NCBI GenBank assembly: GCA_016219595.1
Contig: JACRLY010000021.1
Span: forward strand, 6,083 to 70,082
Length of the DNA stretch: 64,000 nt
Source of the DNA: Ignavibacteriota bacterium
GTDB lineage: Bacteria > Bacteroidota > Ignavibacteria > Kapaibacteriales > UBA2268
Reading direction: 5' to 3'
Under the pieces are notes generated by a model. It was given only the letters and a program-made list of their open reading frames with translations, was not told the origin of the DNA and made no database searches. Both the position numbers and the translations under genes were made by a program. Numbering within the stretch: position 1 is the first letter of the stretch; every line of letters starts with the position of its first letter. Shown piece after piece: positions 33,095 through 63,511 of this stretch.

Positions 33095-33105
33095 AAAAAA
33101 AAATT

Positions 33106-40306: not shown

Positions 40307-40338
40307 GAGACAGGTTTCTTACCTGTCTCTTTTTTTTA
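40307..40338 (+). terminator. Rho-independent terminator
   Basis: GAGACAGGT (40307-40315) pairs with ACCTGTCTC (40321-40329) around a 5-nt loop, followed by a T8 run. Confidence 0.85.
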
Positions 40339-44014: not shown

Positions 44015-44064
44015 ATAAATTTTATTAATTGCTCTGCAAACCTTAATTTTGCAGTCTCGATTTT

Positions 44065-44139
44065 CGGCGTGTAGCGCAGCCCGGTTAGCGCACTACTTTG
44101 GGGTAGTAGGGGTCGGCAGTTCGAATCTGCCCACGCCGA
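44065..44139 (+). tRNA. tRNA-Pro (anticodon GGG)
   Basis: Hand-folded cloverleaf. Acceptor CGGCGTG/CACGCCG. D arm GCGC-AGCCCGGTTA-GCGC. Anticodon arm CTACT-TTGGGGT-AGTAG. T arm GGCAG-TTCGAAT-CTGCC. No encoded CCA. Confidence 0.9.
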
Positions 44140-44164
44140 CGATGATTATACAAATATCCTTTTC

Positions 44165-47100
44165 TTATTTAACTATACCTACCCTTTGTGTTTTTATAAT
44201 TGTTGGTGTTTTTAGGATTACAAAATAGTTGCCTTGAGACAAATGGTATGTATTAAAACCTATTTTCTGCCTTCCTAATTCAGGTACACCATCCAAAAGT
44301 GTCATTACTGTTTCACCAAGAATATTTGTTATTATTAATTGTGTTCTGTCTTTTTCTATAAGTTCAATTTCTATTTCTGCTTCATATGATACAGGATTGG
44401 GATTTATTGAAAATAATTGAACTTTACCATTGATATCAAATAAACGTTTACCACCTTCTTCGCAAATACCCAAAATCTTGAATTTACCCGAATTTGTTTC
44501 GATATCGTAGTCAACGATATTATTTGAAGCATCGTACAAATTGAATTCCAACAAATCAAGAGTAGTCTCAGTGGCAGTTCCTAATGCGGCAACGATAGGA
44601 ATAGAGGCAAGTTCTGTATTGCCACTTATTTCTCCTGTTACTTCTATTATTACTGAATCATTGCTGAATGTTGAAATGGATCTTCTGTCTATGGGAGCCA
44701 ATATACTTCTCTGGAATCGCACTTTGGATTTGAAATTCGTAGCAATTGCCTGAATTCCGTCCATTTTCACTTTACTGAAATACAGCTTCAGTTCACGTGC
44801 TTCACCGGGATTAGCCGAGTCATCGGGAATTGTTACTAATCCACCGATACCTTCGCCAAAGAGAGTGACAATAGCGGGAGAGCCGGTTCCTGCATAATCG
44901 AAACCTATTCCGCCTGATGTTCTTCCACCGTATTTTGGTTTGAACTGAACAGTCAGTGGACGCGAATCCCCGGAATTCAGATTGAACGTACCGCCACCTG
45001 AAATAATATTGAATTGCTCCTTGTCAGGATACATTAATTCGGTATTTGTTATTGCGATAGAACTTGTGCCGATGTTTTTGAGCAACAGGGTATCACTAAA
45101 TGTTTTTTCATTACCTAATTCAACTTTGCCGAAGTCGAGAATATTTGTCATCACCTGCAACTGAGGTAATACACCTTCTCCAATGATTCTTTGTCTTAAT
45201 GTATCTGCCTGTGTAATAATAACAATTGTTGAGGATTTGTTACCCACTGAATTTGGCTTGAATCTGAACTCGACCGATTTAGTATTACCAACATCAACAT
45301 TGAAAGGAGGAAATCCCGAAACCTGGGCAAATTGGTTATAATTGCCGCCTTCAAAATATATTGAATCAATCCTGCAAGGATAGCTTCCTGTGTTCGTTAT
45401 AAAACCTGTAATCACAGAATCCTTCACAGTTCCAACCAGCGCCTGTTTCATATCAATATCAACAGCAGCAGCTTGAGGTGCGACAATAGACCAGAGAGAA
45501 TCGGAGATGTCTTGTTGAGCTATAGATACATTATCCATTGCCCATATTTTGATAGTTGAATCATTACTCCCACTTGCAAGGAACAGCCCATCTGGACTAA
45601 AAGCTACTGTACTAATTCTCCCATTATGTCCAGTCAAGGTTTTTATAATAGTACCAGAATTTATGTCCCATATTTTAATGGTGGAATCAGTGCATCCACT
45701 TGCTAATATCGAGCCATTCGGATTAAATGCTATTGAGGTAGGTGCAAAATTTTTCCCAGTTAAAGTTTTTATTATAGTGCCAGAATTAAAGTCCCATATT
45801 TTAATTGTGGAATCACCGCTACAACTTGCTAACATAGTACCATCGGTACTAAATACTACTGATATTACTATAACTAAATGTCCTAAAAAAGTATTAATTA
45901 AATTTCCAGAATTAATATCCCATATTTTGATTGTATGATCAAAACTTCCACTTACCAACTTTGTACCGTCAGGACTATATGCGATAGATGTTATACCATA
46001 AGAATGACCGGAAAAAGTTTTTTCTACATTACCAGTAAATATATTCCATAATTTAATTGTTCTATCGTCACTACCACTTGCTAAAAATGTACTATTAGGA
46101 CTAAAAGCAATTGAATAAATTCTTTCAGTATGTCCAATTAAAGTTTTAATTTCTGAACCAGAGTCTACGTCCCATAATTTTATAGTTTTATCATAATATT
46201 CGCTGGCACTTGCTAACTTTGTATTATCCGGACTAAAAGCTACACATTTAATATCATCAGTGTGGCCAGAAATAGTTTTTACAGGATTACCAGTAATTAT
46301 ATCCCACAATTTAACTGTATTATCATTACTTCCACTTACTAATTTAGTATCATCAGGGCTAAATGCAACAGAATTAACGGATCCATTATGACCACGCAAA
46401 GTATAAATTAAAGAACCATAAGCAATAGGGTATTCTTTACTTTTTACCTTCATGATACACTGATTACTAATGGGTTTGGGTATATTAATCCATTTGTACT
46501 TTAAATTACTCGCTCCGTTTGTTATATTCTTCCAGTTAATTCCATTATCAATACTGAAATCAATACATAATGTATCACCAGGTAAAACTCCATCCCAAGT
46601 AATAGAAGTATCAGAACCAACAAAAAAGAATTCTCCACCATTTGGGTTTCTTAATATTAATTTATTATTTACAAAAGTATCAAACTTAAAACGGGTTCTT
46701 GAAAAGAATAAATTACCTGAACAAGCATCAGATTCAAATTCTAATCTACAATAATAATGACCTGTTTTACTTGGTGAAAACTGAACTTTTAAATTCCTAC
46801 TTTGATTTTCTTGTAATATGAAAGGCGGAGCCGAACCACCCCAATTAATTATTTGAAAGTCAGGATTTGATATTATTAGATTATTTATTTTAATATCATT
46901 ATTCCTTGCAGTAATTGTTATATTCTTTGTTTGTGAACCAGGGGGTAAAATTTTATCAAAACTAATTGATGGAGAAGGATTGTACTCAATTTTTGCTAGG
47001 TTATTGCTTGATATAAAATATTCAAAATTGGATTGAAGGTTTAATGGTTTTATAAGAGAATTACAAGAGCGATAAGTTGTACAATTTTTATCACTTAACC

Positions 47101-47893
47101 ACTCAATATAACAATTTTCAGAGAATAATATCTCTTGTAATATTTTAAGATATATTGCTTTAATATTTGATTCTGTTGCAACATTTTCAAAATATTTACC
47201 TCCAGTTTGTTCTGATATATCTTTCAAACACTTAGGGGCACACATACTTACAACAATTGAAAAAACAGATATTTGATTTTGCTGACAAAGCTGAATTATT
47301 CTACTTGTTTGTGGTTCAAATTTAGGGTATCCATCTGACAGAAAAATAATAATTCTTTTATTTTTTCCATTCATAGCAACTTGAACTGCTCCATTAGATT
47401 GATTAAGAAATGCTTCGTCGTAATTAGTTCCATTAAGTGATTTAAATGATAAAATTTTATTTAATAATATTTGCTTTTGGTTAGTGAAATCCTGGTTGAA
47501 ATAACTCGCATCGCTGAAACTGGTAATTGCACATTCCGAAATGCCAAGATTCAATGAATTGACCCATATAGTGGCTCCGGTTTGTGCCATCTTTAGTCCT
47601 TCACCTTCCATTGAACTTGAAACATCTATTGTAATAACTGAAGATATTGGTACATCCGGTTTTGGTGCAGGACAGGAGACTCTGGTTACTGTTTTCTGAA
47701 TGCCGTCTTCTGTTAATGTGAAATCTGAGGGACTTAGGTTTGTGATTTGTTTTCCGTCTTTGTCGAATGCAAAAAATTTTGCTTTCATTGTCGGGAAGTT
47801 TGAAGCATCAACGTCAAATACTGATATGGTTTGTCCAGCCAGTGTCAGAGTAATGAATTGAAATAAACAGCAAAGAATAACTAACTTTTTCAT
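44165..47893 (-). CDS. Secreted multidomain protein: vWA, Ig-like domains, seven WD40 repeats, Ig-like domains, T9SS CTD
   Basis: Signal peptide. MIDAS DVSSSMEG. Seven GH...(K/I)(L/I)WD repeats (e.g. GHNGSVNSVAFSPDDTKLVSGSNDNTVKLWDI). C-terminal INPNPVSYEAEIEI...GNYFVILKTPTIIKTQRVGIVK. Confidence 0.85.
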   Translation of the reverse strand: MKKLVILCCLFQFITLTLAGQTISVFDVDASNFPTMKAKFFAFDKDGKQITNLSPSDFTLTEDGIQKTVTRVSCPAPKPDVPISSVITIDVSSSMEGEGLKMAQTGATIWVNSLNLGISECAITSFSDASYFNQDFTNQKQILLNKILSFKSLNGTNYDEAFLNQSNGAVQVAMNGKNKRIIIFLSDGYPKFEPQTSRIIQLCQQNQISVFSIVVSMCAPKCLKDISEQTGGKYFENVATESNIKAIYLKILQEILFSENCYIEWLSDKNCTTYRSCNSLIKPLNLQSNFEYFISSNNLAKIEYNPSPSISFDKILPPGSQTKNITITARNNDIKINNLIISNPDFQIINWGGSAPPFILQENQSRNLKVQFSPSKTGHYYCRLEFESDACSGNLFFSRTRFKFDTFVNNKLILRNPNGGEFFFVGSDTSITWDGVLPGDTLCIDFSIDNGINWKNITNGASNLKYKWINIPKPISNQCIMKVKSKEYPIAYGSLIYTLRGHNGSVNSVAFSPDDTKLVSGSNDNTVKLWDIITGNPVKTISGHTDDIKCVAFSPDNTKLASASEYYDKTIKLWDVDSGSEIKTLIGHTERIYSIAFSPNSTFLASGSDDRTIKLWNIFTGNVEKTFSGHSYGITSIAYSPDGTKLVSGSFDHTIKIWDINSGNLINTFLGHLVIVISVVFSTDGTMLASCSGDSTIKIWDFNSGTIIKTLTGKNFAPTSIAFNPNGSILASGCTDSTIKIWDINSGTIIKTLTGHNGRISTVAFSPDGLFLASGSNDSTIKIWAMDNVSIAQQDISDSLWSIVAPQAAAVDIDMKQALVGTVKDSVITGFITNTGSYPCRIDSIYFEGGNYNQFAQVSGFPPFNVDVGNTKSVEFRFKPNSVGNKSSTIVIITQADTLRQRIIGEGVLPQLQVMTNILDFGKVELGNEKTFSDTLLLKNIGTSSIAITNTELMYPDKEQFNIISGGGTFNLNSGDSRPLTVQFKPKYGGRTSGGIGFDYAGTGSPAIVTLFGEGIGGLVTIPDDSANPGEARELKLYFSKVKMDGIQAIATNFKSKVRFQRSILAPIDRRSISTFSNDSVIIEVTGEISGNTELASIPIVAALGTATETTLDLLEFNLYDASNNIVDYDIETNSGKFKILGICEEGGKRLFDINGKVQLFSINPNPVSYEAEIEIELIEKDRTQLIITNILGETVMTLLDGVPELGRQKIGFNTYHLSQGNYFVILKTPTIIKTQRVGIVK

Positions 47894-47965
47894 TATCGTA
47901 TCCTGTTATAGTTCTACTCAAATATACAAAAAAGCATTGATTATATATTCAATGAAATAATTAAT

Positions 47966-50503
47966 TCACATCTTCACAAATTTATATATCTTGTCTCCTG
48001 ATTTGAGGAAATACACTCCGTCATTTAATCTATTTACATCTAATTTTTTCCAGCTTTCTGCTTCCTGTACTTTTATACCAAGTAAATTGTATACTTCAAT
48101 TTTCTTATTTGGATTGATTGTCCCGTAAATCAACTCAGTGTCTTCTGTCATGACTTCAATAGGTATATCGCAATTGGATTTCCCGGTAAATGAAATTGAT
48201 TTTCCAGTTCCATGCAGTATCAACATCTGATTCATACACGAGTCAGTCATATTGAGTGTGTCGGATTGTTCTCCTGATTTTTCTGGTGCAAAACAAATTA
48301 AAAGTTCCTTCGATTCTCCCGGTGCAAAATTCATAGCAAACTGGTTTTGTGGAATTGAAAATACAGTATTATGTTTTAGAAATACATTTTCAAGAATATA
48401 AGGCTCACTGCCATTATTAGTAAGTACCACAGCCAAACAATTTATGCTGAAAACAAATACATCCCCGAATTCTAATTTCCCGCTGTCCGAGGGTGGCTTC
48501 GAAGATAAAACAAGATTGTTATCCTTGAATGTTATTTCAATAGTATCGGAATGGCCAATACATCCCGAAGCAGTGTGACCCTCGACCCAGTACTTGCCGC
48601 TTTGTGTTACTTCAAGGTAATTGACCCAATTTAAAACTTTCATGGTAGGGCAATGCCACCAATAATATGAAAAACCGGATTCGGTATATAAGCGGACAGT
48701 GTCGCCTTCGCAAGGATTCCCGTTATATGTAATTCTTATATTTGTATCGAATGCTGCTACATTAACAGTATCATGCTGAATACATCCTTCTGCCGATACA
48801 GCTTCAACGCTGTATTGACCAGTAGAATAGACTTTAATAAATTCAGTAGTTTCTCCCGTATTCCATTTATAACTGACAAACCCCGGTCCTGCAGATAGAA
48901 AAATACTGTCCCCTTCGCATATAGTTCTGTCTTTTCCGATTGATAAAACGTTGGGTGAAACAAATGATACATTAATTGTATCACGCACTTCGCAGTTGCC
49001 GAGCCGCGCAATTACCCAATAGCTGCCGGATTCACGAACTATGATAGACCTTTCAGTAGAGCCGTTACTCCAGCGGTATGGTTCTTTGCCGTAACCGGCG
49101 TCGAGCTCTGCAGAATCACCGGGACAGATGGAAACATCCTGGCCCAGATTGAGACTATTGTAATCCGAGAAAAAGCCATAAGAACATCCTGTGTGAGTAT
49201 CACCTTCAAGCACACCAAGATGGAAAAAGTTTATACTGTTTGAAAATATACATGTTTGGTCAACGGGAATTGTTGTAGTATTGAATGATAACCTTGCATA
49301 AAGCCACTGGTTGCTTGTGCCGGGAATTGCAGAAAAATCGGATGCTTTAATAATGTTCGGATTTCCATTTAAGGTAAAACCGCTTATTGCATCGGATGTA
49401 GTGAAAATCATCATCGAAAGCTGCTGCTTTGTCGTACGTGTGAATGCTACCTGGCGTGAGCCGGTACATTTTGTATGAGGCAGCAAAGCTGAACCAAGCT
49501 CACATCCAATACCGGATGTTTGATAAACATAGATTGGCTTATCGCTTTCTATATGACAGGAATTATCATCAATTGAGTATCCTGTTAAAAAGCCTTTATT
49601 CGTAGTATTAATTGAATAATTAGAATTCCACACTTTAATATTTGTGTTGTCTTCAGTTGCAGTAATCCAAACAGTTTCTTTTTCTCCGGAACCTAAAAAT
49701 CCTTTGACTGCATTGTATTCAGTACCGATTATATTTAAAGGTACAATTTGGTCTCCAATTAAATCGGCACAACCTGTCCATCCATTAAGCATATCGTCTT
49801 TAATTGTAATTGCAATTGGCTTGTCTGATGTTACTTCAGTGCCAATCAGATGACGAATAGGGTCATTACCTATTCCTGCTCCCGAATAGGTTTGTCCTTT
49901 ATTTAATATTAAACTGTATGGAATTCTTCTGCTGTGGCCAACAATATTTTGTTCAGGAATAATTGTAACTGATGTACTGTCGCTTGTAGCAACAATTTCC
50001 ATCGAAGAATAAGGCTTTGGAGTATAGTTGTTATCAATATTGTAAGTACCTTGCCCGGGTATTATGAAATGAGTGCCAAGTGCATTTTTTCCTTTTAGTG
50101 CGAATAACTCGGGATTGAAATTAGTTTCGAGAGATGCAACTTCATAGTATGCCTGAATCGGTTTTGTTGCTTTTATGTATAAACCGTAATTCAATACCCG
50201 GTCAGGTGGTTTATTTTCGATTATATCAATAAACGGAGTCAGGTCAACTGTCTGAGAGCTGTTTGCGGCGATATTCACCGTAATAGGTGTAAACGAAGGA
50301 TTAGCCGGCTGCGAAACAGTAACTAAGGATGGATGGTCGAACGATGACATTCGCAAGAAAATAGGTCTGTCCAAATCCTCCGAACTGTTACGCGACACTT
50401 CAGGTGCCACAAACCAGAACTCGGTGTCTGTCTGACAATAGGCAGTTACAGAAAGAACAAACAAGAGAAATAAATTAACATACAAAAAACGAATATGCTT
50501 CAT
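47966..50503 (-). CDS. Secreted T9SS cargo with IgGFc-binding-like N-terminal domain and Cys-containing Ig-like repeats
   Basis: TDTEFWFVAPE after the signal peptide. Repeats CPGDSAELDAGYG..YRWSNG and CEGDSIFLSAGPGFVSYKWNTG. CTD ends GVYFLKSGDKIYKFVKM. The ATG at 50503 is preferred; a GTG at 50512 is an alternative. Confidence 0.75.
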   Translation of the reverse strand: MKHIRFLYVNLFLLFVLSVTAYCQTDTEFWFVAPEVSRNSSEDLDRPIFLRMSSFDHPSLVTVSQPANPSFTPITVNIAANSSQTVDLTPFIDIIENKPPDRVLNYGLYIKATKPIQAYYEVASLETNFNPELFALKGKNALGTHFIIPGQGTYNIDNNYTPKPYSSMEIVATSDSTSVTIIPEQNIVGHSRRIPYSLILNKGQTYSGAGIGNDPIRHLIGTEVTSDKPIAITIKDDMLNGWTGCADLIGDQIVPLNIIGTEYNAVKGFLGSGEKETVWITATEDNTNIKVWNSNYSINTTNKGFLTGYSIDDNSCHIESDKPIYVYQTSGIGCELGSALLPHTKCTGSRQVAFTRTTKQQLSMMIFTTSDAISGFTLNGNPNIIKASDFSAIPGTSNQWLYARLSFNTTTIPVDQTCIFSNSINFFHLGVLEGDTHTGCSYGFFSDYNSLNLGQDVSICPGDSAELDAGYGKEPYRWSNGSTERSIIVRESGSYWVIARLGNCEVRDTINVSFVSPNVLSIGKDRTICEGDSIFLSAGPGFVSYKWNTGETTEFIKVYSTGQYSVEAVSAEGCIQHDTVNVAAFDTNIRITYNGNPCEGDTVRLYTESGFSYYWWHCPTMKVLNWVNYLEVTQSGKYWVEGHTASGCIGHSDTIEITFKDNNLVLSSKPPSDSGKLEFGDVFVFSINCLAVVLTNNGSEPYILENVFLKHNTVFSIPQNQFAMNFAPGESKELLICFAPEKSGEQSDTLNMTDSCMNQMLILHGTGKSISFTGKSNCDIPIEVMTEDTELIYGTINPNKKIEVYNLLGIKVQEAESWKKLDVNRLNDGVYFLKSGDKIYKFVKM

Positions 50504-50526
50504 ATCTTTCACAATCTAAATTATTA

Positions 50527-51792
50527 TCAAATTTTAACAAACTTATATATTTTATTATTCACTAACAAGAAATACACTCCGGCACTCAATCCGCTTACAT
50601 TAATTTTGTTTTTGTATTCGGTTTCGATTACTTTTATGCCGAGAGCAGAAAAGATTTCGATTTTATTAATTTCTTGGTCTGTATTTAATGTTAAATAATT
50701 GGAGACTGGGTTGGGAGAAATTAACACTTTATTTTTTTGAATTTGTTCATCAACTGAAGTCGCTTTAGAATCAAATACGAAAACGCCATAAGTAGCTTCT
50801 GCAAACCATAATTTTCGGTTTTCATCTATAGTAAAATCGAGAATTTTAAAAATATCTTTATATACACCATCAAAATTTGGGAATTCATATTTTGTCCAAT
50901 TTTTGTTATTGTCTAATCTATAAAAATGACGGGAAGCACCAACTCCTGCTGTATCTTTTGAAATTATCCATAGATTGCCTTCTAAATCGGCTTTAACATT
51001 TGCGAAAACTTCGTTTTGAGCCAATAAACTATCCGTTACAGAAAATAAGGCATAATAAACAACTCCAGTATAATCCTTATAAATCCCAATTTTTCTTTTC
51101 AATAGAATAGCAATTGAATTATCTGACTGTATTTGAATAGATTGTATTGATTCATTTTCTAAGTCTGAAATATCATTCTTATCGAAAATCTTCACGGTAG
51201 TACCATCAAACTTTACCATTTTGCTATATGCCGAATACCATAAATTATTCTTTCCGTCGCAAAACATAACTGCATCGTTGTTAAACGGCAAAGGCGTTGA
51301 TTGCGGAATATTATATCTGACTATTGAATCACCAGTAATGTCATATTTATTAATTCCTAAGGTAAGATTTAAAAACCAGATATTGCCAAACTGGTCGCCA
51401 GCTATACCTCTAATTTTATCATCATACATTTTCGGATAATTCGTAAGATCTAAGCGTTTTACAGAATCAAGCTCAATGCTAATTAATCCTTGGTTAGTTC
51501 CAGCCCAAACTCTTCCCTTAGAAACGACAACTTTTCGGATATTATAAGGATTATTGGCATCGTTTTGATTTTGTTTGTTATTATAAATTGATGCCCATTT
51601 AGAACCATCAAATTTAGCTAATCCGCAATCCATTCCAAGATATACATTACCATTAAAATCAGATTTTATGCAGAACGGCAATCCTTTTATTGGTAAATCA
51701 TTATTTTTAAACCAAGTCCAACCTGATTGAGAAAAAGTATCAGCTATTATTACAAACATCAAAACAACAAAAATGTAAAGAAAGTTTTTCAT
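50527..51792 (-). CDS. Secreted single beta-propeller protein (Reg_prop-like repeats) with T9SS CTD
   Basis: Repeats of the type VWAGTNQGLISIE and NLWYSAYSKMVKFDG. CTD ISPNPVSNYLTL...EIFSALGIKVIETEYKNKINVSGLSAGVYFLLVNNKIYKFVKI. SD GAGGTG. Confidence 0.75.
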   Translation of the reverse strand: MKNFLYIFVVLMFVIIADTFSQSGWTWFKNNDLPIKGLPFCIKSDFNGNVYLGMDCGLAKFDGSKWASIYNNKQNQNDANNPYNIRKVVVSKGRVWAGTNQGLISIELDSVKRLDLTNYPKMYDDKIRGIAGDQFGNIWFLNLTLGINKYDITGDSIVRYNIPQSTPLPFNNDAVMFCDGKNNLWYSAYSKMVKFDGTTVKIFDKNDISDLENESIQSIQIQSDNSIAILLKRKIGIYKDYTGVVYYALFSVTDSLLAQNEVFANVKADLEGNLWIISKDTAGVGASRHFYRLDNNKNWTKYEFPNFDGVYKDIFKILDFTIDENRKLWFAEATYGVFVFDSKATSVDEQIQKNKVLISPNPVSNYLTLNTDQEINKIEIFSALGIKVIETEYKNKINVSGLSAGVYFLLVNNKIYKFVKI

Positions 51793-51807
51793 TTAACACC
51801 TCATATA

Positions 51808-53109
51808 TTAAAATTTAACAAACTTATAAATCTTATCTCCTACTTTTACAAAATACACTCCGGCACTTAGCCCACTGACATCAATTCTGTCTTTGTAATC
51901 AGTTTCGATTACTTTTATCCCGAGAGCAGAGAAGATTTCGATATCGCCAATTTCTTGATATGAATCCAATGTTAAATAATTTTTTACCGGATTTTGAAAC
52001 ACTAATTGAGTTACGTTTGATTCATTTTCTACGACTGAAGTAGGATATTGATTAAAAAGTAACACACCTTCGACATTTGTGCCAACCCATAATTTATTAT
52101 CATCATCTATAGCAATTGCAGAGGGAGCGTATATATTGGGGTCAGATGAGTCGGTTGTACCAATCGGGGGTAAATCAATACTACTCCATAGATTATTGAT
52201 ATTTATATTTTTATCAAGGACCAAAATTTTCGGTTTTTCTTTTTGATATACTCCAGCTACACCTACTAATAAATTACCAATTTTATCTTCAAATATGGTA
52301 AAAATATATTTTTTTCCGGGTTCATATTCAGGCAATCCGGTTATATTTTCATGACTATATTCATACCATATCCCGTTCCTAAATATCAAAACATTTTCTT
52401 TACTTGTTATAATAACTATAGAATTATCTTTCGTTATATAAAATTTTCTAATTACTTCGCCTGTTGGGTCTAAAGGAACAAAATTTGAATCGGAAACAAT
52501 CCATTGAACTCCGTCATAATGAACTAATAATTTTCCTGAACTGTACCAAATATTGCCCTGTTTATCTGCTTGTATGAAACTTCCTTGAATATATGGTAAG
52601 GGTATGTTTAAAGCAAGCAGGTCAAATACCTGAATCGTTGTGTCTTCCATTTTGTAAATGTATTTGCCCATATCGGTACACCAAATTGAATTATTACTAT
52701 TGAATGTGATACCTGTAAAACTGTTGGTTTTTAATCCGCTGTTAGCATTAGTATAAATGGTGAATTGACTTCCATCATATTTAAGCAATCCGTAATTAGT
52801 AGCACACCATATATTATCATCTTTATCAATACACATGTCCATAATATTCCATGTAATTTTATTAGTCAGACCTGTATTATTCCAATTGAACCATCCAATA
52901 ACATCATCTTTTATTGTAGCTAATCCGTATGCAGTAGCAACATAAACCTGATTTTTTGTAGTAATAATTTTTCTTATATTAAAAAGAGTATCATTCATTT
53001 GCAAATCGCCGTAAGTTGATTTGTATAATTTCCAATCCGATTGTGATTGGAGCTCGTTTATTAAGAATACAATGCAGAAAAAGACAGTAATAAGTTTAAA
53101 TAAATTCAT
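51808..53109 (-). CDS. Secreted single beta-propeller protein (Reg_prop-like) with T9SS CTD; paralog of 50527-51792
   Basis: IWCATNYGLLKYDGSQFTIY and similar repeats. CTD EIFSALGIKVIETDYKDRIDVSGLSAGVYFVKVGDKIYKFVKF. Confidence 0.75.
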   Translation of the reverse strand: MNLFKLITVFFCIVFLINELQSQSDWKLYKSTYGDLQMNDTLFNIRKIITTKNQVYVATAYGLATIKDDVIGWFNWNNTGLTNKITWNIMDMCIDKDDNIWCATNYGLLKYDGSQFTIYTNANSGLKTNSFTGITFNSNNSIWCTDMGKYIYKMEDTTIQVFDLLALNIPLPYIQGSFIQADKQGNIWYSSGKLLVHYDGVQWIVSDSNFVPLDPTGEVIRKFYITKDNSIVIITSKENVLIFRNGIWYEYSHENITGLPEYEPGKKYIFTIFEDKIGNLLVGVAGVYQKEKPKILVLDKNININNLWSSIDLPPIGTTDSSDPNIYAPSAIAIDDDNKLWVGTNVEGVLLFNQYPTSVVENESNVTQLVFQNPVKNYLTLDSYQEIGDIEIFSALGIKVIETDYKDRIDVSGLSAGVYFVKVGDKIYKFVKF

Positions 53110-53129
53110 AATTAATGCCCTATTAAATA

Positions 53130-53162
53130 TTGGAGATTAAATATATTTTAAATAATCTCCAA
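53130..53162 (-). terminator. Hairpin (possible terminator) after 53191-55218
   Basis: TTGGAGATTA (53130-53139) pairs perfectly with TAATCTCCAA (53153-53162). The downstream tract on the minus strand is only weakly U-rich. Confidence 0.4.
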
Positions 53163-53190
53163 AATTCATATTTGTTTCATAATTATTTTC

Positions 53191-55218: not shown

Positions 55219-55295
55219 AAATAACCATCAAAATTTTTAGATTAACATATAATTTAAATAATCCAAAATATTCAAATTTGTTTCATTAATTATTT

Positions 55296-57707
55296 TCACA
55301 TCTTCACAAACCTTAATACTCTATCACCACCTCTAATAAAATATACTCCTGTACTCAACCTGCTTACATCTATTTTGTCTTTGTAATCAGTTACCATAAC
55401 TTTTAATCCGAGAAAATTATATATTTCAACATCTGATAATTTTACATCATCGGAACGATGTAATTGAATGAAATCGTGAGCAGGATTTGGATAAACACTA
55501 ATACTTTCGCCATCAATTATTATATAATCATCCACCCCAGTCAATATTGTTTTGTTTGTGAGTAATCCAATATCAGTTCCGAGATGAAGATAGTTGTTTG
55601 CATCAATGGAGAAGTCGTTTATTTGGAAATTCAGATATTCTCTTCCGTTTATTTTCAAATTGTATAGTTCGAACTTCCCTTTGCCGATATAACGGTACAT
55701 ATATCCCGTGTAATCACAAGCCCAAATCCTGCCATCGAGTAGTTTTTTATGGGTAATGTACCAGCCGATAATACCGCACTCAGATTTGGGTATGCTATCC
55801 CATTTTTCGGTTGCGATGTCGAAAAAGTAGTAATGATCACGCATAAAGTAATCTGCAAGAAGTTCATTTGAAGCAATATCATAAAATAATGTATTTGCAA
55901 ATACTTTGTTTATTGAATCATACATTGGGATATTATAGATTTTACTTTCAATAGGATTAAATTTAATTAGAGATTCAGATGTATAAATCCAGACATTTAA
56001 ATTGTTATCAATAGTAACAGCTTTGGGGACTGTGTCATGTTGGACTAAATAAAAACCACCAATCCTTTCATAATAATAATCCGGCATGCATGAATTGTAT
56101 TTATCATAAGTTGTTAATACTTTTGTCGCTGTATTATATATCGAAAGGAATGAGTTAAGAGAATCGGAATCTTCATTTAAATAATAATGTCCTAATGAGA
56201 CCAGGTATTCATTATAAGAATCGAAGTCTTCAATATAAGCATCATGTTTATCCATAAATCCCATATCGATATTTAATAATTCAATATTATCCCAAGTTGT
56301 CAAAATAGGACTTAATAATGTGTTGTCAATCCTGCGACAATTGAAATAAACATTACCATCCTGACAAGGTAAAATTTTATAACTATCAGAGACTAAACTA
56401 GGTCTAATGAATGATGAATCTGTTTCGCATAGCAGGGGTTCTGAATAAATATTCCTACCCTTGAAAATTCCTTTTCCATCCTTCCGAATACCAAATTCAA
56501 CTATAGAAGAAAACGGTGTATTTGATTCGATAGGAGGAATAATATTTCTATCATCAAGACAATAGAGTGTACCAATAGAATAATCAGGTTTATAAGAATA
56601 TGTTATTTTAACATATCTTTTACCATTAACAAGCCTTGGAGCAGAGAAGTAAACGCTATCAGGAATCCCAAAGTCTTGAGGAGTATTTTTTATCCATCCC
56701 GTATCATTTTTAAAATAAATAAATTTGCTTGAATATGCTACAAGTGTACCATCATCGAGAATGCTTAACGTGTTAATAAATTTATCATCATCATATACCA
56801 AATATTCGGTTACAATTCCTGAATTGATATCATACTTTATCGGATGAGCAATTGTACTATTATCATTAGAGGCGATACACCATATATTACCATCTATGTC
56901 TGTGATAAATGGCCTGGTTTCGCGGGGTGCTAATAAATTAATATCAAATATATAAGACATAGACCAGGAAGTATCATGATATACATAAACTCCTATGGGA
57001 TTTTTCAAGAAGACATCATCGTTGGCGCTTGCTAATGAAATATTAGCACCATAATTATACATATCATAATAAGGAAATTCATCTTTTGATTGAAATGTTC
57101 TCACAATACCACTATCAGCAATAATAGCAATTTTTATTCTTTCGTTATTAGATTCAGTGAAATAATAAACAGTATTGGTTTTTGTATTATCATTAAACAA
57201 AGCCCAGCACTGGTCTTTGTGAAAAAAAAGTTTTGCTAAATCAAATTTATATTTGATTGAATCACTTAAATCAAAAGTTTTCCATACTCCATTGCTGTAT
57301 TTGTGTACTTTGTGAGATGAGAAAGTCCAGATGTTACCGCTCGAATCCTTGTAGAGGTCTCTTGCATCCGTGTCGGGATAACTTGTGCATATATGTTTGT
57401 CTTTTGTGATTACACCATTCTCAATAACAGCTAATCCGCCGTTTGTGCTAATAAGAATTGTATTATCGGTCATTGACATTAATGTGTTGATATAATTCCC
57501 CGAAAGGTCGGAATTGAGGGAAGTTTTGTTTTCACTTTCTTTTGTTGTCAAATCATAAACAGTCATTCCATTATTTCTTCCGATATACATTTTATTACCA
57601 TCGCTCGCAAATTGCCTGACGAAGTCATAATTAGTTCTGAGTTCCCATTGGGAAAGAGCAATGTTTGTTAGTAGAACTATAGTGAAAAATTTGACAAATA
57701 GCTTCAT
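55296..57707 (-). CDS. Secreted protein of about 800 aa with Reg_prop-like propeller repeats and T9SS CTD (PorZ-like architecture)
   Basis: Signal peptide. STNGGLAVIENGVIT and NIWTFSSHKVHKYSNGVWKTF repeats. CTD VYPNPAHDFIQL...DYKDKIDVSRLSTGVYFIRGGDRVLRFVKM. SD GAGGA. Confidence 0.75.
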   Translation of the reverse strand: MKLFVKFFTIVLLTNIALSQWELRTNYDFVRQFASDGNKMYIGRNNGMTVYDLTTKESENKTSLNSDLSGNYINTLMSMTDNTILISTNGGLAVIENGVITKDKHICTSYPDTDARDLYKDSSGNIWTFSSHKVHKYSNGVWKTFDLSDSIKYKFDLAKLFFHKDQCWALFNDNTKTNTVYYFTESNNERIKIAIIADSGIVRTFQSKDEFPYYDMYNYGANISLASANDDVFLKNPIGVYVYHDTSWSMSYIFDINLLAPRETRPFITDIDGNIWCIASNDNSTIAHPIKYDINSGIVTEYLVYDDDKFINTLSILDDGTLVAYSSKFIYFKNDTGWIKNTPQDFGIPDSVYFSAPRLVNGKRYVKITYSYKPDYSIGTLYCLDDRNIIPPIESNTPFSSIVEFGIRKDGKGIFKGRNIYSEPLLCETDSSFIRPSLVSDSYKILPCQDGNVYFNCRRIDNTLLSPILTTWDNIELLNIDMGFMDKHDAYIEDFDSYNEYLVSLGHYYLNEDSDSLNSFLSIYNTATKVLTTYDKYNSCMPDYYYERIGGFYLVQHDTVPKAVTIDNNLNVWIYTSESLIKFNPIESKIYNIPMYDSINKVFANTLFYDIASNELLADYFMRDHYYFFDIATEKWDSIPKSECGIIGWYITHKKLLDGRIWACDYTGYMYRYIGKGKFELYNLKINGREYLNFQINDFSIDANNYLHLGTDIGLLTNKTILTGVDDYIIIDGESISVYPNPAHDFIQLHRSDDVKLSDVEIYNFLGLKVMVTDYKDKIDVSRLSTGVYFIRGGDRVLRFVKM

Positions 57708-57743
57708 AATGAATCCTCTAATATATTATTATCATTTAATTTC

Positions 57744-60170
57744 TCACATCTTCACAAACTTATATATTTTGCCTCCTGTTTTCAGGAAATACACTCCGGC
57801 ATTCAATCCGCTGACATCTATTCTGTCTTTGTAATCAGTGACCAGAACTTTTATTCCGAGAACATTATATATTTCAACATCTGAAAATTTTACATTATCG
57901 GAATAATGTAACTGAATGAAATCAGTTGCGGGATTGGGATAAATACTAATATTTGCCACTTCAATGATTGTATTTTCTTCAACACCGGTCAATATTGTTT
58001 TATTTGTCAGCAAGCCTATGTCTGTGCCGAGATGAAGATAGTTGTTTGCATCAATGGAAAAATCATTAATGAAGAATCCAAGGTTAGGTTTTCCATTCAC
58101 CTGTAAATTATATGGAGTGAAATGTCCTTTACCTGCATAACGGTACATATAGCCCAAATCATCACAAGCCCAGACATTGTTGTCGAGGAGTTTTTTGTGA
58201 GTAACATAATTGCCGATGAAACCTGCATCTGCTTTGGGAATACTATCCCATTTTTCAGTGGCAATATCAAAGTAAAAAAACATGGTGTGAATAGTATTTC
58301 TGAAATCAACGTATAATCCAACGAGTTCGTTTGATTTAGAATCAAAGTTGAATTGCTTTAATGAAATATGATAATTTTTAACTGAATCATATACAGGTAT
58401 ATCATATACTTTACTATCAGAGGGATTAAACTTGATTAATGATAAATTGGTTTTTATCCATACATTCATATCATTATCTACAGTAACTTTAGAAGGAATA
58501 GTATCCATACCATACCTAAAATAACCATCTATTATATAATAAAAATCGGGCAAAGGTGAGTTATTTCTGTCATAATTTAATAATGTACCCTCGGATGTAT
58601 TATAAATAGAAATATAAGAAGAATAATTAGTAGTCAATGAATCATAATCATATTCATATCTCCCCAAAGCAACTAAATAATTGTCTTTAACATCAAAATC
58701 AATTATTTCCGGATTTTTTTCTATAAAACCCATGTCTCTTTTAATTAATTCGTCTCCATCCCAGGTTGTGAGAAAAGGAGTTGAACCGGAAGGACCGGAT
58801 AACCTTTGGCTTGTATAATATACATAGCCATCCAAACACGGTTTGATATCAATCACATTAGAAACCAAATCGGGTCTAACAAATCCAGATTCAGCTTCAT
58901 ATTGATAAGTTTCAATATAAGAAAACTTTCCTAAGAACATCCCTTTGCCGTCTTTATTTATACCAAACTGGGTTATTGTTGAATATGGGAATCCTTTTGT
59001 TATGGGTAGTATTTGAGACCCGTCATCTAAACATATTGTTGTTCCAACAATAATATTTGTGTCCTTTTTAGGTGAATAAGAAATCACTGAATAAATTTTA
59101 CCATTAACTAAAACAGGGTATGTAAAATATACACTATCCGGTATACCTAAATCGGTGGACTTTTTTCTAGTCCATCCGGTATCATTATAAAAATGCAGAT
59201 TAAATCTTGTGTAAGCAATTATAGTACCGTCATTGAGTATTATCATGCTTGCTATATATTTCTCATCTTCGGTACTAAGATGATGAGTCATTATACTTGT
59301 ATTTAAATTATAGCTTGCAGGGTGTGCTGTGTTTGCAAGTTCGTCTCTAACTATTGTCCATAAATTATTGTTATTGTCTAAGAGCAAGTCAGAGAGCCAA
59401 AATGGTTCAAAAGGAGAATCCAGAAAAATATTTGTCTTTGACCATATATTATTGCGATATTGATATATTCCATCACCATTTTTGAGGTACACATCATCAG
59501 CAGCACTTATAAATGAGACAGAACCCTGACGATATGGAAATTCTTCTTTTGACTGGAATGTTTTGATAATACCTGTATCATCAATAACAGCGATTTTCAA
59601 ATATTCATCACTAACATCTGAATAATAATAAACAGTCTCAGTTTTTGTATTGTCATTAAACAAAGCCCAACATTGGTCTTTATGAAAAAATAAACTTGCC
59701 AAATCGAAACGATACGTTATAGAATCACTAATGTCATAAGATTTCCAAACACCATCACTGTATTTATGTACTTTGTGGGATGAGAATGTCCAGATGCTGC
59801 CGCTTGAATCAATGTAAAGGTCTCTTGCATCCGTGTCGGGATAACTCGAACATATCGGCTTATCATTTGTAATTACTCCATTTTCAATTAATGCTAAACC
59901 GCCGTTCGTACTGATGAGAATTGTATTATCGTTCAGTGGCATTAATGTGTTAATGTAATTTCCCGGCAGTTCGGAATTGAGAGAAGTCAAATTGACACCT
60001 TCTTTAGTTGCAAAATCATAGGCAGTCATTCCGTTGTTTCTTCCCATGTACAATTTATTACCATCGCTGGCTAATTTTCTTATGAAATCGGAATTGTACC
60101 TTAGCTCCCATTGCGGCTTTACGAGATTAGTCAGAAATACAAAGAACAGAATTTTAATGAATGTTTTCAT
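57744..60170 (-). CDS. Tandem paralog of 55296-57707 (PorZ-like architecture) with T9SS CTD
   Basis: The N-terminal 200 aa or so are strongly similar to the neighbour. CTD IYPNPATDFIQL...DYKDRIDVSGLNAGVYFLKTGGKIYKFVKM. Start set to the ATG of MKTFIK, which follows SD GGGTGAT; the track GTG start lies inside that SD. Confidence 0.75.
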   Translation of the reverse strand: MKTFIKILFFVFLTNLVKPQWELRYNSDFIRKLASDGNKLYMGRNNGMTAYDFATKEGVNLTSLNSELPGNYINTLMPLNDNTILISTNGGLALIENGVITNDKPICSSYPDTDARDLYIDSSGSIWTFSSHKVHKYSDGVWKSYDISDSITYRFDLASLFFHKDQCWALFNDNTKTETVYYYSDVSDEYLKIAVIDDTGIIKTFQSKEEFPYRQGSVSFISAADDVYLKNGDGIYQYRNNIWSKTNIFLDSPFEPFWLSDLLLDNNNNLWTIVRDELANTAHPASYNLNTSIMTHHLSTEDEKYIASMIILNDGTIIAYTRFNLHFYNDTGWTRKKSTDLGIPDSVYFTYPVLVNGKIYSVISYSPKKDTNIIVGTTICLDDGSQILPITKGFPYSTITQFGINKDGKGMFLGKFSYIETYQYEAESGFVRPDLVSNVIDIKPCLDGYVYYTSQRLSGPSGSTPFLTTWDGDELIKRDMGFIEKNPEIIDFDVKDNYLVALGRYEYDYDSLTTNYSSYISIYNTSEGTLLNYDRNNSPLPDFYYIIDGYFRYGMDTIPSKVTVDNDMNVWIKTNLSLIKFNPSDSKVYDIPVYDSVKNYHISLKQFNFDSKSNELVGLYVDFRNTIHTMFFYFDIATEKWDSIPKADAGFIGNYVTHKKLLDNNVWACDDLGYMYRYAGKGHFTPYNLQVNGKPNLGFFINDFSIDANNYLHLGTDIGLLTNKTILTGVEENTIIEVANISIYPNPATDFIQLHYSDNVKFSDVEIYNVLGIKVLVTDYKDRIDVSGLNAGVYFLKTGGKIYKFVKM

Positions 60171-60579
60171 AGCAATCACCCATGAAGATTTAGAAAATAT
60201 ATATATTTAATTATTAATTTCTAATTAAAATCTTTCTTGTGTCAGCCCTATTATAGTAATAACAAAAAAAAAGGGAAAATGTTTCAGTGCATTACTGATT
60301 TTTTATTTGTTTGGATTATTGAATTTCCTTTTTTTAGGATTTTAAATCCGATAAAATAATTGAAGATTAAATGGGTTTAACATCATAATATGAAATAAGA
60401 CATAATAATCCTGAAACAAATCGTTCAAATTAGGATTTATTTAATAAGGAAGCATAGAGTACTCTTAGAAATAAAAAATACTGAAGTTAATTAATAACTG
60501 AAGAAAATATGAAACTTTTTTTTAAAGTAATCGTTCTTTATTATGTAACATATTTTGTATTTGAAGGGAGGATAAAAAT

Positions 60580-61119
60580 ATGCCGCGAATGAATTTTCCA
60601 TCGGTTTTCTGGTCAATGGCTTTTATAGTGATTTTATTTTCTTATATCATTTCCGGTTGTGAAAAAAACAGCATTTCCAATGTTGGCAAACCGACTGGAG
60701 CTTTGGTGCAATACTCTGAGTGCAAAAATACAATTGTCGGCAAGACCGAAATTGATATAACATCGAACAATCTTGATTGCATAGAGTATAGCTATGATGT
60801 AAAATCAAATAGTTTGATTTTAAAGCACATTAATGCCGGATTCAATTGCTGCCCGGGTAAAATCACTGCCGATATTTCAATTAACAGCGATGCAATAATT
60901 ATCAATGAAAAGGAACAGGAAGCAGGCTGCCATTGCAATTGTTTATTTGATATTGATTATAAAATTGAAAATCTTATTTCCAGGTCGTTCAAAATCGTAA
61001 TAGTCGAGCCCTATCGTCCAGTCGAAGAAGATGTATTAGAGTTCAATATTGATTTGAATGTTAATCCATCAGGTAAGTTTTGCGTAGAACGCAATAACTA
61101 CCCGTGGAATATTAAGTAA
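60580..61119 (+). CDS. Cys-rich hypothetical lipoprotein
   Basis: Lipobox IISGC. Cysteines at CKNT, CIEY, NCCPG, GCHCNC, FCVE. Strong SD GGGAGGA. Confidence 0.65.
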   Translation: MPRMNFPSVFWSMAFIVILFSYIISGCEKNSISNVGKPTGALVQYSECKNTIVGKTEIDITSNNLDCIEYSYDVKSNSLILKHINAGFNCCPGKITADISINSDAIIINEKEQEAGCHCNCLFDIDYKIENLISRSFKIVIVEPYRPVEEDVLEFNIDLNVNPSGKFCVERNNYPWNIK

Positions 61120-61229
61120 TTTACAATTTTTCATTACAAATAATAACTAGTATGAAGAAAGCTTCTGAATATCAGCAAATAAAAATTATTTGGAAGCTCT
61201 GTTCGGAGAATTAAACCCACAATGTGGGA

Positions 61230-63350
61230 TTAATTCTTAATAACCATTTTTGCTAAATGTGCAACCGGCACATTAATGAAGTATACTCCCGGCGTAAGGG
61301 ATTCAGTATTCAAATGAATTTTATGTATTATTCCTTCATTAAGTAACCCGGTCTGAATAGTTTGAATGGTTTTCCCAAACAAATCACAAATATTTATTGT
61401 CATCTTTTCATTATTCCCGGCGATTTCCAAAACAATCTTATCCATAAACGGATTCGGATATACAGTTAAATTTGATTCATTGTTGATTTGCGGATATTCC
61501 TCGACAGACACTACCGAATCAACAGTTCTATAAACACCTGTAGTAGTTGTTGCATAAATATGTTTATCTTTCAAATAATTTACATGCGAGGTAGGTGATG
61601 CTATTATACCGGAATCACTTAAAATCCAGGTTCTGTTATCGAAGTCATAAGTAAAAAGTCCATAATCCAATCCGGCATACAATGTATTCGAAATTTTATT
61701 TATGTCATTGAACTGGAACTCACCTACAAAATCATCGCCGGTTAAACCATCATTAATTAATCTCCAAATATTACCACGGTCATTTGACTCTATTACACCT
61801 GATTTAGGATAACTAATCCAAATAAAATCTCCATCCATTTCAATCTTTTGTCCATAAAATTCGCCGGCTAAATCCATACAGGTTTTTGGAATCCATGTAA
61901 TTCCATAGTCGGTAGAATAATAAACCGTAACATCTTCAGTATATATTATTTCATCATTTTCTCCAAGATTGATTACTGCTGAATTAAAATTATCCAATAA
62001 TTTCTCCCAGCTTTGACCATCATTCTTCGATACATACAAATTTGAACTTAATCCCTGTCCGTTTGCAAGGTAAAGATGACCTAAAGAATTTTCTTTCAAA
62101 TCATATGTTCTGGTATTTTCGAATCCGGGAACATTTTCCCATGTTGTTCCGTCGTCTGACGAAAATAAGAAATAATCCAGGTAAGATGACCATATATACA
62201 ACTTGTCGTTTTTATCAAGTAAAACTCCGTTCATATAATCTATATTTATTCCATTCATCGGATTGAAACTCCATGAATTACCTTTGTCGGTCGATGAATA
62301 CAAACCAATCAGTGACATTGCGAAAATTTTCCCGTTACTATTTATATCATAACTTGTAATCATAGGAAAACCGGGATTATCAGCAATAACTGTCCAATTT
62401 TCTCCATCGTCTTTTGAAGTGAATATTCCGTTTGAACATACATATATTTTTTCATTGTATATGTCAATATCGTTGATACTGTAATCTGCAAATGATGCCG
62501 TTGATTTTGTCCATGTTAAACCGTCATCTGCCGATATATAAATTCCCCCGTCCTCAGAACCTGCAATTAATTTTCCGTTTTTAGTATAGACCATAGAGGT
62601 TATAGAAACTGTTTTAGGGGAATTATTAAGTCTGTTCCAGGTTTGTCCATCATCTGCAGACACATAAACACCACTCGTATCAGTGCCTGCAAATACTTTA
62701 CCATTACCGAAAGCAAAACATCGAATCCACGATGAATCAAGTCCATCGGTATAATAATTATAAGCCAGTGAAGCCGTGTCAATAACCCATACCCCTTTAT
62801 TCGATGCAAACAACTTCCCTGATGGCGATAAAGCCATCCTTGTTCTGCTGTTTCCCAGGTGAGTATCTTCCCAAAATTCACATCTTGACCACGAACTGCC
62901 GCTGTCATCTGAAAAGTATAAATCGTATGTTCGGTTTGCAAATATCCTTCCATTGCTGCATGCAATAAAATCCTGGATATTTTCCATGGTGTCTTGTATA
63001 AGTCCCCAGCTATTACCTCCGTCTATCGACCGGAATACTCCTCCGTCACTCATGGACGAAAATAAATATCCGTTTTTTGCTATTGCTATCGATTGTATTA
63101 TCAATTTTGTACGGGAGAGTTTTACTGTTTGTCCCTGTGCTGTCACCTCATCAATCACATTCCATGAAGTACCGTCATCGGTTGATTTATACATACCCAA
63201 AAAACAGGTATATAAGTTCCCGCTTGAATCTATTGCAAGTTCCTTTGTGGGTGAATCATTCGGTACATTGACCTTCTCCCAATAATCCTTTGAATGTAAA
63301 GTACCTGAAAAAATTAAAATACAAACAAGAAAAATGACAAGTTGTTTCAT
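61230..63350 (-). CDS. Secreted BNR/Asp-box multi-propeller protein (sortilin/VPS10- or GH74-like repeats) with T9SS CTD
   Basis: About 11 Asp-boxes (STDDGTSW, SIDGGNSW, SDDSGSSW, SADDGQTW, SADDGLTW, SKDDGENW, STDKGNSW, SSDDGTTW, SKNDGQSW, STDYGITW, SNDRGNIW). CTD VYPNPFMDKIVLEI...GVYFINVP. Confidence 0.8.
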   Translation of the reverse strand: MKQLVIFLVCILIFSGTLHSKDYWEKVNVPNDSPTKELAIDSSGNLYTCFLGMYKSTDDGTSWNVIDEVTAQGQTVKLSRTKLIIQSIAIAKNGYLFSSMSDGGVFRSIDGGNSWGLIQDTMENIQDFIACSNGRIFANRTYDLYFSDDSGSSWSRCEFWEDTHLGNSRTRMALSPSGKLFASNKGVWVIDTASLAYNYYTDGLDSSWIRCFAFGNGKVFAGTDTSGVYVSADDGQTWNRLNNSPKTVSITSMVYTKNGKLIAGSEDGGIYISADDGLTWTKSTASFADYSINDIDIYNEKIYVCSNGIFTSKDDGENWTVIADNPGFPMITSYDINSNGKIFAMSLIGLYSSTDKGNSWSFNPMNGINIDYMNGVLLDKNDKLYIWSSYLDYFLFSSDDGTTWENVPGFENTRTYDLKENSLGHLYLANGQGLSSNLYVSKNDGQSWEKLLDNFNSAVINLGENDEIIYTEDVTVYYSTDYGITWIPKTCMDLAGEFYGQKIEMDGDFIWISYPKSGVIESNDRGNIWRLINDGLTGDDFVGEFQFNDINKISNTLYAGLDYGLFTYDFDNRTWILSDSGIIASPTSHVNYLKDKHIYATTTTGVYRTVDSVVSVEEYPQINNESNLTVYPNPFMDKIVLEIAGNNEKMTINICDLFGKTIQTIQTGLLNEGIIHKIHLNTESLTPGVYFINVPVAHLAKMVIKN

Positions 63351-63511
63351 AATAATTACTCCGAATCGAATATGAATTATTCTAAGATGTATATCAAAAC
63401 AAAGCTAATGAAAATTTTAATTATTTCAAATTCTTTAAATAAATATTAAATCCGGAATTGTAAAAAGTAAAAGTTATATAAGACAATTTGAAGAATATTT
63501 AACTGGAGTTT

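Follow-up and report, generated by a model that had tools for sequence, protein, structure and literature searches.

A mosaic row of predicted type IX-secreted propeller-protein genes with a probable six-gene core in an Ignavibacteriota genome

The array and its export signals

We analysed a stretch of 64,000 nucleotides (nt) from an Ignavibacteriota bacterium (contig JACRLY010000021.1 of assembly GCA_016219595.1; hereafter the window) and in it a row of eight minus-strand genes, P1 to P8, at positions 44165 to 63350 (Table 1). A first-pass annotation had described this array as one co-oriented island of consecutive genes for secreted beta-propeller proteins, in which three unrelated repeat families had been convergently recruited for a shared surface function. 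We found that the array proteins have signals for Sec export and for type A sorting by the T9SS (type IX secretion system), that they consist of propellers or Ig-like domains, and that none of them has a recognisable catalytic site. The single island did not survive comparison with related genomes; the array is pieced together from three blocks, namely P1, a core of six genes (P7 to P2) and P8.

Table 1. Features in and around the array (positions in the window; protein lengths in amino acids, aa; CTD, C-terminal sorting domain)
Feature	Position	Strand	Description or basis
HEAT-gmk-tRNA-Pro-P1 to P7 segment	40467-60179		inferred to be inverted relative to relatives
tRNA-Pro (GGG)	44065-44140	+	ARAGORN; Rfam 60.6 bits
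P1, 1242 aa	44165-47893	-	VWA-WD40 protein
P2, 848 aa	47966-50512	-	IgGFc_binding and Ig-like protein
P3, 421 aa	50527-51792	-	single Reg_prop-like propeller
P4, 433 aa	51808-53109	-	single Reg_prop propeller
P5, 675 aa	53191-55218	-	Asp-box (BNR, Ycf48-like) propeller
P6, 803 aa	55296-57707	-	two beta-propellers and CTD
P7, 811 aa	57744-60179	-	tandem paralogue of P6; first core gene
AT-rich divergent intergenic region upstream of P7	60180-60579		sequence; gene-order comparison
Cys-rich lipoprotein-like open reading frame, 179 aa, lipobox 'IISGC'	60580-61119	+	splits P7 from P8
P8, 706 aa	61230-63350	-	two tandem Asp-box propellers and CTD

All eight proteins reach the cut-off of TIGR04183, the model of the T9SS type A sorting domain (23 bits), with scores of 23.5 to 40.6 bits, P1 lying barely above it. 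PF18962 (cut-off 27 bits) is exceeded by P3 to P8, reaches 22.6 bits in P2 and is absent among the 25 of 66 families listed for P1. Signal peptides were called by a charge and hydropathy heuristic: each of the eight N-termini has a lysine or arginine within its first 8 residues and then a 12-residue window with a mean hydropathy of 2.2 to 3.4. The annotation was therefore right that eight minus-strand genes combine a signal peptide with a T9SS CTD, and its propeller types were borne out in seven of the eight proteins (one WD40, four Reg_prop-like and two BNR/Asp-box), P2 being the sole protein of another kind. The genes are not consecutive, since P7 and P8 are separated by 1050 nt and a plus-strand open reading frame (ORF) for a lipoprotein-like protein. 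The array does adjoin tRNA-Pro as claimed, at a distance of 24 nt to the P1 stop codon rather than 26 nt, and the tRNA, which converges with P1, faces the 3' end of that gene and not its start. An Rfam scan found the tRNA alone, and PADLOC defence models gave only a generic WD40 match.

The CTDs themselves divide the array. P2 to P7 all end in one subtype ('...EYKDRIDVSGLSAGVYFLKxGDKIYKFVKM'), which we call the core subtype, while the CTDs of P1 and P8 differ from it. Over the last 44 aa, tails of this subtype have a mean identity of 63-70% across unrelated passenger folds. The same subtype is found on 8/8 proteins of the corresponding block in GCA_004322215.1, the closest relative for the core, where the tail of the P2-like protein has diverged furthest. 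Two proteins of that block without a counterpart in the window, of 489 aa and 435 aa, end in it too. When P5 is compared with its orthologue there, the CTD is far better conserved than the rest of the protein (41-43% identity overall). A more diverged tail of the core type is present on an Omp28-like protein at 13157-15088, so the subtype is not strictly confined to the block. The tails give no clear sign of ongoing gene conversion among the CTD-coding ends: they are about as similar between genomes (66.4% identity) as inside each of the two (62.9 and 70.5%).

At the other end of the proteins, a glutamine directly follows the likely signal-peptide cleavage site in P1 to P7 (AG|Q, YC|Q, FS|Q, QS|Q, QA|Q, LS|Q and KP|Q), and the site predicted for P8, HS|K, has none. 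This pattern is that of the 'Bacteroidetes Q-rule', which concerns pyroglutamate N-termini. It is not general across the Fibrobacteres-Chlorobi-Bacteroidetes (FCB) group (PMC5837995); the predicted cleavage sites suggest that it may extend to this Ignavibacteria-type lineage.

Propeller folds and the question of catalysis

Pfam shows only the CTD for P6 and P7. Against the Reg_prop model PF07494 (cut-off 20.4 bits), P4 scores 46 bits and P3 22.2 bits, both over the cut-off, and P6 alone scores 12.4 bits (E 0.2). When the P6/P7 family is searched, 17 of its 18 members match Reg_prop at E<=1, the best at 6.5e-7. An AlphaFold model of P6, based on an alignment of P6, P7 and 16 homologues (predicted local distance difference test, pLDDT, 84.7), has two propellers followed by the CTD sandwich, and its top Foldseek matches are BT4673, BT4663 and BT3049 (E about 1e-18), then PorZ (5m11; E 2.6e-17). 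Sequence comparisons agree with the fold: the P6 family profile matches the sensor domain of BT4673 (E 1.3e-7), P4 matches that of BT4663 (E 9.6e-8), and hhalign pairs residues 178-433 of P4 with the C-terminal end of the P6/P7 family (probability 99.3, E 3e-20). P6 and P7 are 57% identical and P3 and P4 32%, each pair being tandem paralogues; P3 and P4 carry the core-type CTD, and the P4 orthologue in GCA_004322215.1 is 84% identical. Profile, fold and C-terminal homology together support the annotation's count of four Reg_prop-like proteins, and by these comparisons P3, P4, P6 and P7 appear to be one paralogous group with homologous C-terminal ends.

BT4663, BT4673 and BT3049 are periplasmic sensors of hybrid two-component systems of Bacteroides thetaiotaomicron, and their sensor domains (4A2L/4A2M, 3OTT/3VA6 and 3V9F) consist of two Reg_prop propellers followed by an all-beta domain, a layout that the P6 model resembles. 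In BT4663, the propeller faces bind disaccharide ligands (PMC5121618). TM-scores to these sensors are low (0.23-0.33) because the domain orientation differs. Unlike the sensors, the array proteins lack a transmembrane segment, a kinase and a receiver and end in a T9SS sorting domain, which argues that they are exported proteins and not signalling proteins.

The second known protein that P6 and P7 resemble is PorZ of Porphyromonas gingivalis (PG1604; 5M11), which likewise has a signal peptide, two propellers (both seven-bladed in PorZ) and a CTD within about 780-800 aa. PorZ is a carbohydrate binder without enzymatic activity that recognises anionic lipopolysaccharide (A-LPS; PMC8545088), and it retains its own CTD (PMC5121618); according to the PorZ papers, it binds phosphorylated mannan and hands anionic LPS to the sortase. 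P6 and P7 could in principle be the PorZ counterparts of this lineage, that is, attachment machinery that passes anionic LPS to a sortase rather than cargo. The shared architecture speaks for this, and PorZ is a top structural match of both the P6 and the P8 model, its TM-scores to P6 (0.36-0.38) being the best among bacterial matches. One of the 18 P6/P7 family members also has a weak N-terminal match to the PorZ model NF052228 at matching positions (27.4 bits over the N-terminal 80 positions, E 1.1e-6). However, the cut-off of that model is 260 bits, and neither P6 nor P7 matches it. The family is also small and limited to one lineage, with 20 clusters in a word-indexed search and, at E<=1e-30, 31 representatives in an exhaustive one; past that threshold it grades into the very numerous propeller-plus-CTD proteins. 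Tandem paralogues in sets of two or three, as found in the window and in the closest relative, would not suit a single-copy core component, and unlike porZ, the genes do not lie beside T9SS genes, with no porU, porV or porQ nearby. We regard the PorZ counterpart as very unlikely, and describe P6/P7 as a small family, restricted to Ignavibacteria and present in tandem copies, whose architecture is that of PorZ and the sensor domains.

P5 and P8 are Asp-box proteins, with 6 and 11 copies of the motif S-x-D-x-G-x-x-W, respectively. P5 scores 45.3 bits with PSII_BNR (cut-off 27) and is laid out as an Asp-box propeller, about 230 aa without an identified domain, and a core-type CTD; P8 scores 73.3 bits with Sortilin-Vps10 (cut-off 33). 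In single-sequence searches of the PDB, both proteins match only the photosystem II assembly factor Ycf48/HCF136 (2XBG, 5OJ5 and 8AM5), a non-enzymatic Asp-box-like propeller that is seven-bladed in Ycf48. The similarity is weak (E 1e-4 to 1e-5), and in contrast to Ycf48 the proteins here carry T9SS export signals and nothing ties them to photosystems.

The family profile of P8 gives another picture. Built from 44 sequences and compared with the PDB, it finds xyloglucanases of glycoside hydrolase family 74 (GH74) first, with E-values from 1.5e-37 to 1e-22, and the AlphaFold model of P8 (pLDDT 88.8) has its highest Foldseek TM-scores (0.55-0.64) to GH74. The model thus presents P8 as a tandem 7+7 Asp-box propeller of GH74 type, like the GH74 structures 2CN2, 6P2K, 6MGJ and 1SQJ, in which the two propellers form a cleft. 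By Foldseek E-value, the best matches of the same model are the Reg_prop sensor domains (about 1e-23). The P8 homologues number at least 792, and many have both Reg_prop and BNR Pfam matches. On both counts, calling the repeat families of the array three unrelated ones was too strong. Many of these homologues were named 'photosystem II stability/assembly factor-like' by their sources, which is an annotation artefact.

The kinship with GH74 raises the question whether the array is a catabolic locus, in which P8 would act as a xyloglucanase of GH74 type and P5 as a sialidase-like Asp-box hydrolase, both secreted for polysaccharide breakdown. In addition to profile and fold, the NCBIfam model 'F510_1955 family glycosylhydrolase' scores 131 bits on P8; its cut-off, however, is 175 bits. 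The GH74 motif 'YARTDIGGAYRW' (6P2O, 5JWZ) aligns to 'YTC--FLGMYKS' of P8, and neither P8 nor its five closest orthologues have an Asp or Glu in this segment, the position being variable across the family. No Asp or Glu column is conserved at >=90% in the 44-sequence alignment. P8 also differs from GH74 in its T9SS CTD and in the regularity of its repeats, with 11 Asp-boxes as compared to 4+5 in GH74 (PMC2716378). P5 has no sialidase match in the PDB or Pfam, and its only 'RIP' is a 'GRIP' at residues 179-182, after two Asp-boxes, that reads 'GRNP' in the orthologue. A GH33 sialidase was accordingly rejected for P5, given the lack of sialidase similarity and the loss of 'GRIP' in the orthologue.

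The surroundings of the genes point the same way. Pfam and NCBIfam found no SusC/D pair, glycoside hydrolase or regulator in 44165-63350, and no transporter or sugar-metabolism genes adjoin the array; the TonB-dependent receptors at 22961-29595 pair with DUF4154 and histidine kinases, not with SusD. We agree with the first-pass annotation that the locus does not look catabolic; its proteins look like non-catalytic binding modules with T9SS export signals, and we consider polysaccharide breakdown quite unlikely. Domain and structure searches recognised no intact known active site in the array proteins, and by the motif comparisons such sites appear to be absent; we think it improbable, too, that P8 has an activity of an unrecognised kind.

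P1 is of a different build. A signal peptide, a VWA domain (DxSxS motif at residue 90) and a choice-of-anchor-D Ig-like domain are followed by seven WD40 repeats (493-790), two further choice-of-anchor-D domains and the T9SS CTD. The WD40 part scores 285 bits with PF00400 in 7 stretches, has its best PDB match in 2YMU (E 5e-143) and is accompanied by a 126-nt periodicity in the P1 DNA. The P1 family is populated and combines VWA, Ig-like domains and a CTD; SBBP repeats, lectin or other modules replace WD40 in some members, which fits an adhesin with exchangeable binding modules.

P2, the last gene of the core, encodes a signal peptide, an IgGFc_binding domain (143-410), Ig-like/ASH domains and a core-type CTD, and had no sequence match in the PDB. 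A scan of the genome collection anchored on P2 found three near-full-length relatives, whose contigs were short or unrelated. In the remaining 72 loci, the match was confined to the Ig-like repeat region, and the scan told little about synteny. A Cytophagales homologue (37% identity) is a singleton, and its P2-like passenger ends in a type B CHU_C signal, indicating that the sorting domain was exchanged during evolution.

Gene order in relatives

The genes from P7 to P2 are separated by gaps of 14-81 nt, and 72 nt lie between P2 and P1. No coding-strand terminator-like hairpin is found in the gaps from P7 to P1; P8 has one of its own at 61228-61216. In GCA_004322215.1, counterparts of the core lie on two contigs that look like neighbours. 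Contig 39 ends with o201, o296, a PAS-kinase gene, UbiA, a radical SAM (rSAM) gene, a CarboxypepD_reg gene, a P6-like gene (62%) and a second P6-like gene (75%) that is cut by the contig end. Contig 29 starts with a CTD fragment, a P6-like gene (57%), the gene for the 489-aa CTD protein and a P5-like gene (41%), and continues with a P4-like gene (84%), a P2-like gene (70%), the gene for the 435-aa Asp-box CTD protein and a phage-type integrase gene. The relative thus keeps the order P6/7-P5-P4-P2 next to the CarboxypepD_reg gene, with the P2 orthologue in the same relative position. What is kept in order consists of Reg_prop, BNR and IgGFc-binding proteins and includes no WD40 protein.

The two outer genes of the array lie elsewhere in the same genome. 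The P8 counterpart (61%) is on contig 40 beside TPR/CHAT genes, and in another metagenome-assembled genome the P8 orthologue adjoins yidC. The P1 counterpart (72%) is on contig 36, after OmpA-DUF1800-DUF1501 and the gene for a 1673-aa LamG protein. A relative with an 80% identical P1 orthologue (locus L088) has the same OmpA-DUF1800-DUF1501-LamG genes upstream. Its order, as found in GCA_027347965.1, GCA_021824625.1 and an ENA contig, is the LamG block, the P1 orthologue, tRNA-Pro (25 nt away), gmk, HEAT, two further genes, an orthologue of the lipoprotein-like ORF (69%) and an adjoining response regulator gene (77%). The side with tRNA-Pro, gmk and HEAT is visible only in this relative; in the 72% relative, the contig ends inside the P1 gene. 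Neither relative has P2 to P7 near its P1 orthologue.

Because the counterparts are scattered in this way, the eight genes are not one island; the row consists of three separately inherited pieces. The annotation had named scattering in relatives as a finding that would count against it, and this is what we see for P1 and P8, while the order of the core is kept in one relative. Its proposal of a shared surface function fares likewise: the six-gene core is supported as a unit, and P1 and P8 are inherited separately from it. The lipoprotein-like ORF, for which Pfam, NCBIfam and PADLOC all gave no match, does not belong to the system.

Comparison of these orders also suggests how the row arose. 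When the segment 40467-60179 is flipped, CarboxypepD_reg comes to lie next to P7, as in GCA_004322215.1, and HEAT comes to lie beside the lipoprotein and response-regulator side, as in L088. Since two adjacencies are restored at once, an inversion of about 19.7 kb in this lineage would be the simplest account of the gene order. No inverted repeats mark the two ends of the segment, where the search gave nothing beyond weak, AT-rich matches such as one of 24 nt at 79%. The right breakpoint would fall in 60180-60579, the divergent region upstream of P7, which probably holds the core promoter. A promoter scan gave 125 hits, not clearly more than the 104.7 +/- 10.2 of shuffled sequence, using a sigma-70 consensus that may not suit this phylum. 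A strong terminator-like hairpin at 40307-40337 (GAGACAGGT...ACCTGTCTC, then a T run) lies directly after CarboxypepD_reg, at the inferred left breakpoint. In GCA_004322215.1, UbiA and an rSAM/SPASM gene stand between the PAS-kinase gene and CarboxypepD_reg, a place where the window has neither.

The position beside a tRNA gene might suggest that the array is a mobile genomic island integrated at tRNA-Pro, as P1 ends only 24 nt from it and a phage-type integrase gene follows the core block in GCA_004322215.1. However, the window contains no integrase, and no direct repeat of the tRNA 3' end is found in 44000-64000. The G+C content of the array (0.30-0.38) falls within that of the rest of the window (0.28-0.40). 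The junction of P1, tRNA-Pro and gmk is conserved in relatives that lack the core there, and the core occupies the same chromosomal site, beside CarboxypepD_reg, in GCA_004322215.1. The tRNA-Pro is thus not an island integration site, and we give the mobile island next to no credence. The integrase of the relative (Arm-DNA-bind_5, Phage_int_SAM_5 and Phage_integrase; contig SCSM01000029.1, locus L002 11725-12572) occupies the place where P1 comes after P2 in the window.

A more serious objection is that there may be no shared function even within the core, CTD genes being abundant and accumulating by local duplication. About 8% of neighbouring genes in the window and its relatives carry a CTD, P1 and P8 are demonstrably recent neighbours of the core, and P6 homologues at 35-45% identity are singletons among housekeeping genes. 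Seven CTD genes in a row are beyond chance if genes are independent, and tandem duplication accounts for part of the run. Against mere accumulation, the order of four core gene types is kept in a relative at 41-84% protein identity, the gaps within the core are short, and a block-specific CTD subtype is found on unrelated passenger folds. With these data, we consider a core without shared function unlikely, while granting it some weight.

One distant relative (39% identity; locus L004, 1-2558 and 10001-12457) encodes a 1238-aa WD40 protein, which runs off the locus end and may be a P1 counterpart, and a 376-aa Ig/CTD protein. A distance of about 8 kb, with housekeeping genes in it, separates them from the P6 homologue, so the tight cluster may have been preceded by a looser grouping.

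What the core may be and do

Taken together, these data favour, with somewhat better than even confidence, a reading in which a six-gene core encodes displayed binding proteins and has two unrelated cargo genes for neighbours. The functional unit would be P7-P6-P5-P4-P3-P2 (47966-60179), probably a single operon. As judged from the paralogous pairs and the tails, the core appears to have grown by tandem duplication, with one CTD subtype placed on unrelated passenger folds. P1 and P8 would be independent T9SS cargo genes that rearrangement, including the putative inversion, has brought next to the core.

By analogy with Bacteroidota, the proteins would be carried over the inner membrane by Sec and then over the outer one by the T9SS, routed by their type A CTD, which would then be cut off as the protein is either linked to anionic LPS or released. 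The propeller faces would bind ligands, most likely glycans if BT4663 and PorZ are a guide, and the VWA domain of P1 probably adds metal-dependent binding.

Several points weigh against this reading. The core is seen in one relative only, where it is split over two contigs, and no promoter was identified for it. T9SS machinery genes (SprA/Sov, PorU, PorV and PorK-N) were not found within the 64-kb window. As for catalysis, the P8 family is kin to GH74 by profile (E 1.5e-37) and by fold (TM up to 0.64). We take the Asp of the 'RTD-x-GG' motif to be the first catalytic Asp of GH74; the D60A mutant entry 6MGL places a catalytic Asp near the GH74 N-terminus and says no more. The matched alignments of P8 and GH74 cover the N-termini, while the second catalytic Asp of GH74 (D465 in 1SQJ/2EBS) lies where the second propeller starts.

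A stronger form of the preferred reading is that the core proteins co-assemble into a T9SS-displayed, non-enzymatic complex for glycan capture or adhesion, for which a sub-class of the type A CTD would select the members and set one anchoring route or surface assembly for folds as different as PorZ-like double propellers, single Reg_prop propellers, an Asp-box propeller and an IgGFc-binding protein. In the type B system, CTD cargo pairs with cognate PorP-like anchor proteins, so that the class of the CTD sets the anchoring route (PMC9143113), and the block-specific subtype could be a parallel to the pairing described there. Unlike in that system, all CTDs of the array score as type A and the cluster has no PorP- or SprF-like gene. 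We hold such a complex to be unlikely.

Other parts of the window contain gene sets that are separate from the array. Three tandem Omp28-like paralogues of 712, 729 and 643 aa lie at 8601-15088, two of them with a T9SS CTD, and are another local expansion of surface-protein genes. At 22961-31425 we found two successive cassettes that consist of a TonB-dependent receptor, DUF4154 (YfiR/HmsC-like) and a histidine kinase, in this order, the last two being fused in the second cassette; stand-alone receiver and hybrid kinase genes come next (31429-33516). Within 5004-7924, a radical SAM/SPASM gene (5004-6074) adjoins a gene for a PMT_2-family glycosyltransferase.

To our knowledge, T9SS cargo has been studied almost exclusively in Bacteroidota. 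Ignavibacteria-type genomes encode many CTD proteins. Literature searches on Ignavibacteria T9SS cargo and on choice-of-anchor D turned up nothing about this locus or its families. Both clustered T9SS cargo genes and propellers joined to a CTD are common, and nothing here departs from known kinds. If the CTD subtype of the core is a dedicated sorting signal, it would refine the view of how type A CTDs work; otherwise the locus follows an ordinary, common pattern in which surface-protein genes accumulate by duplication and rearrangement, and where similar genes stand in a striking row, this need not be a functional island but can be a mosaic of recent origin. The locus offers a compact, testable set of presumably non-catalytic surface propeller proteins.

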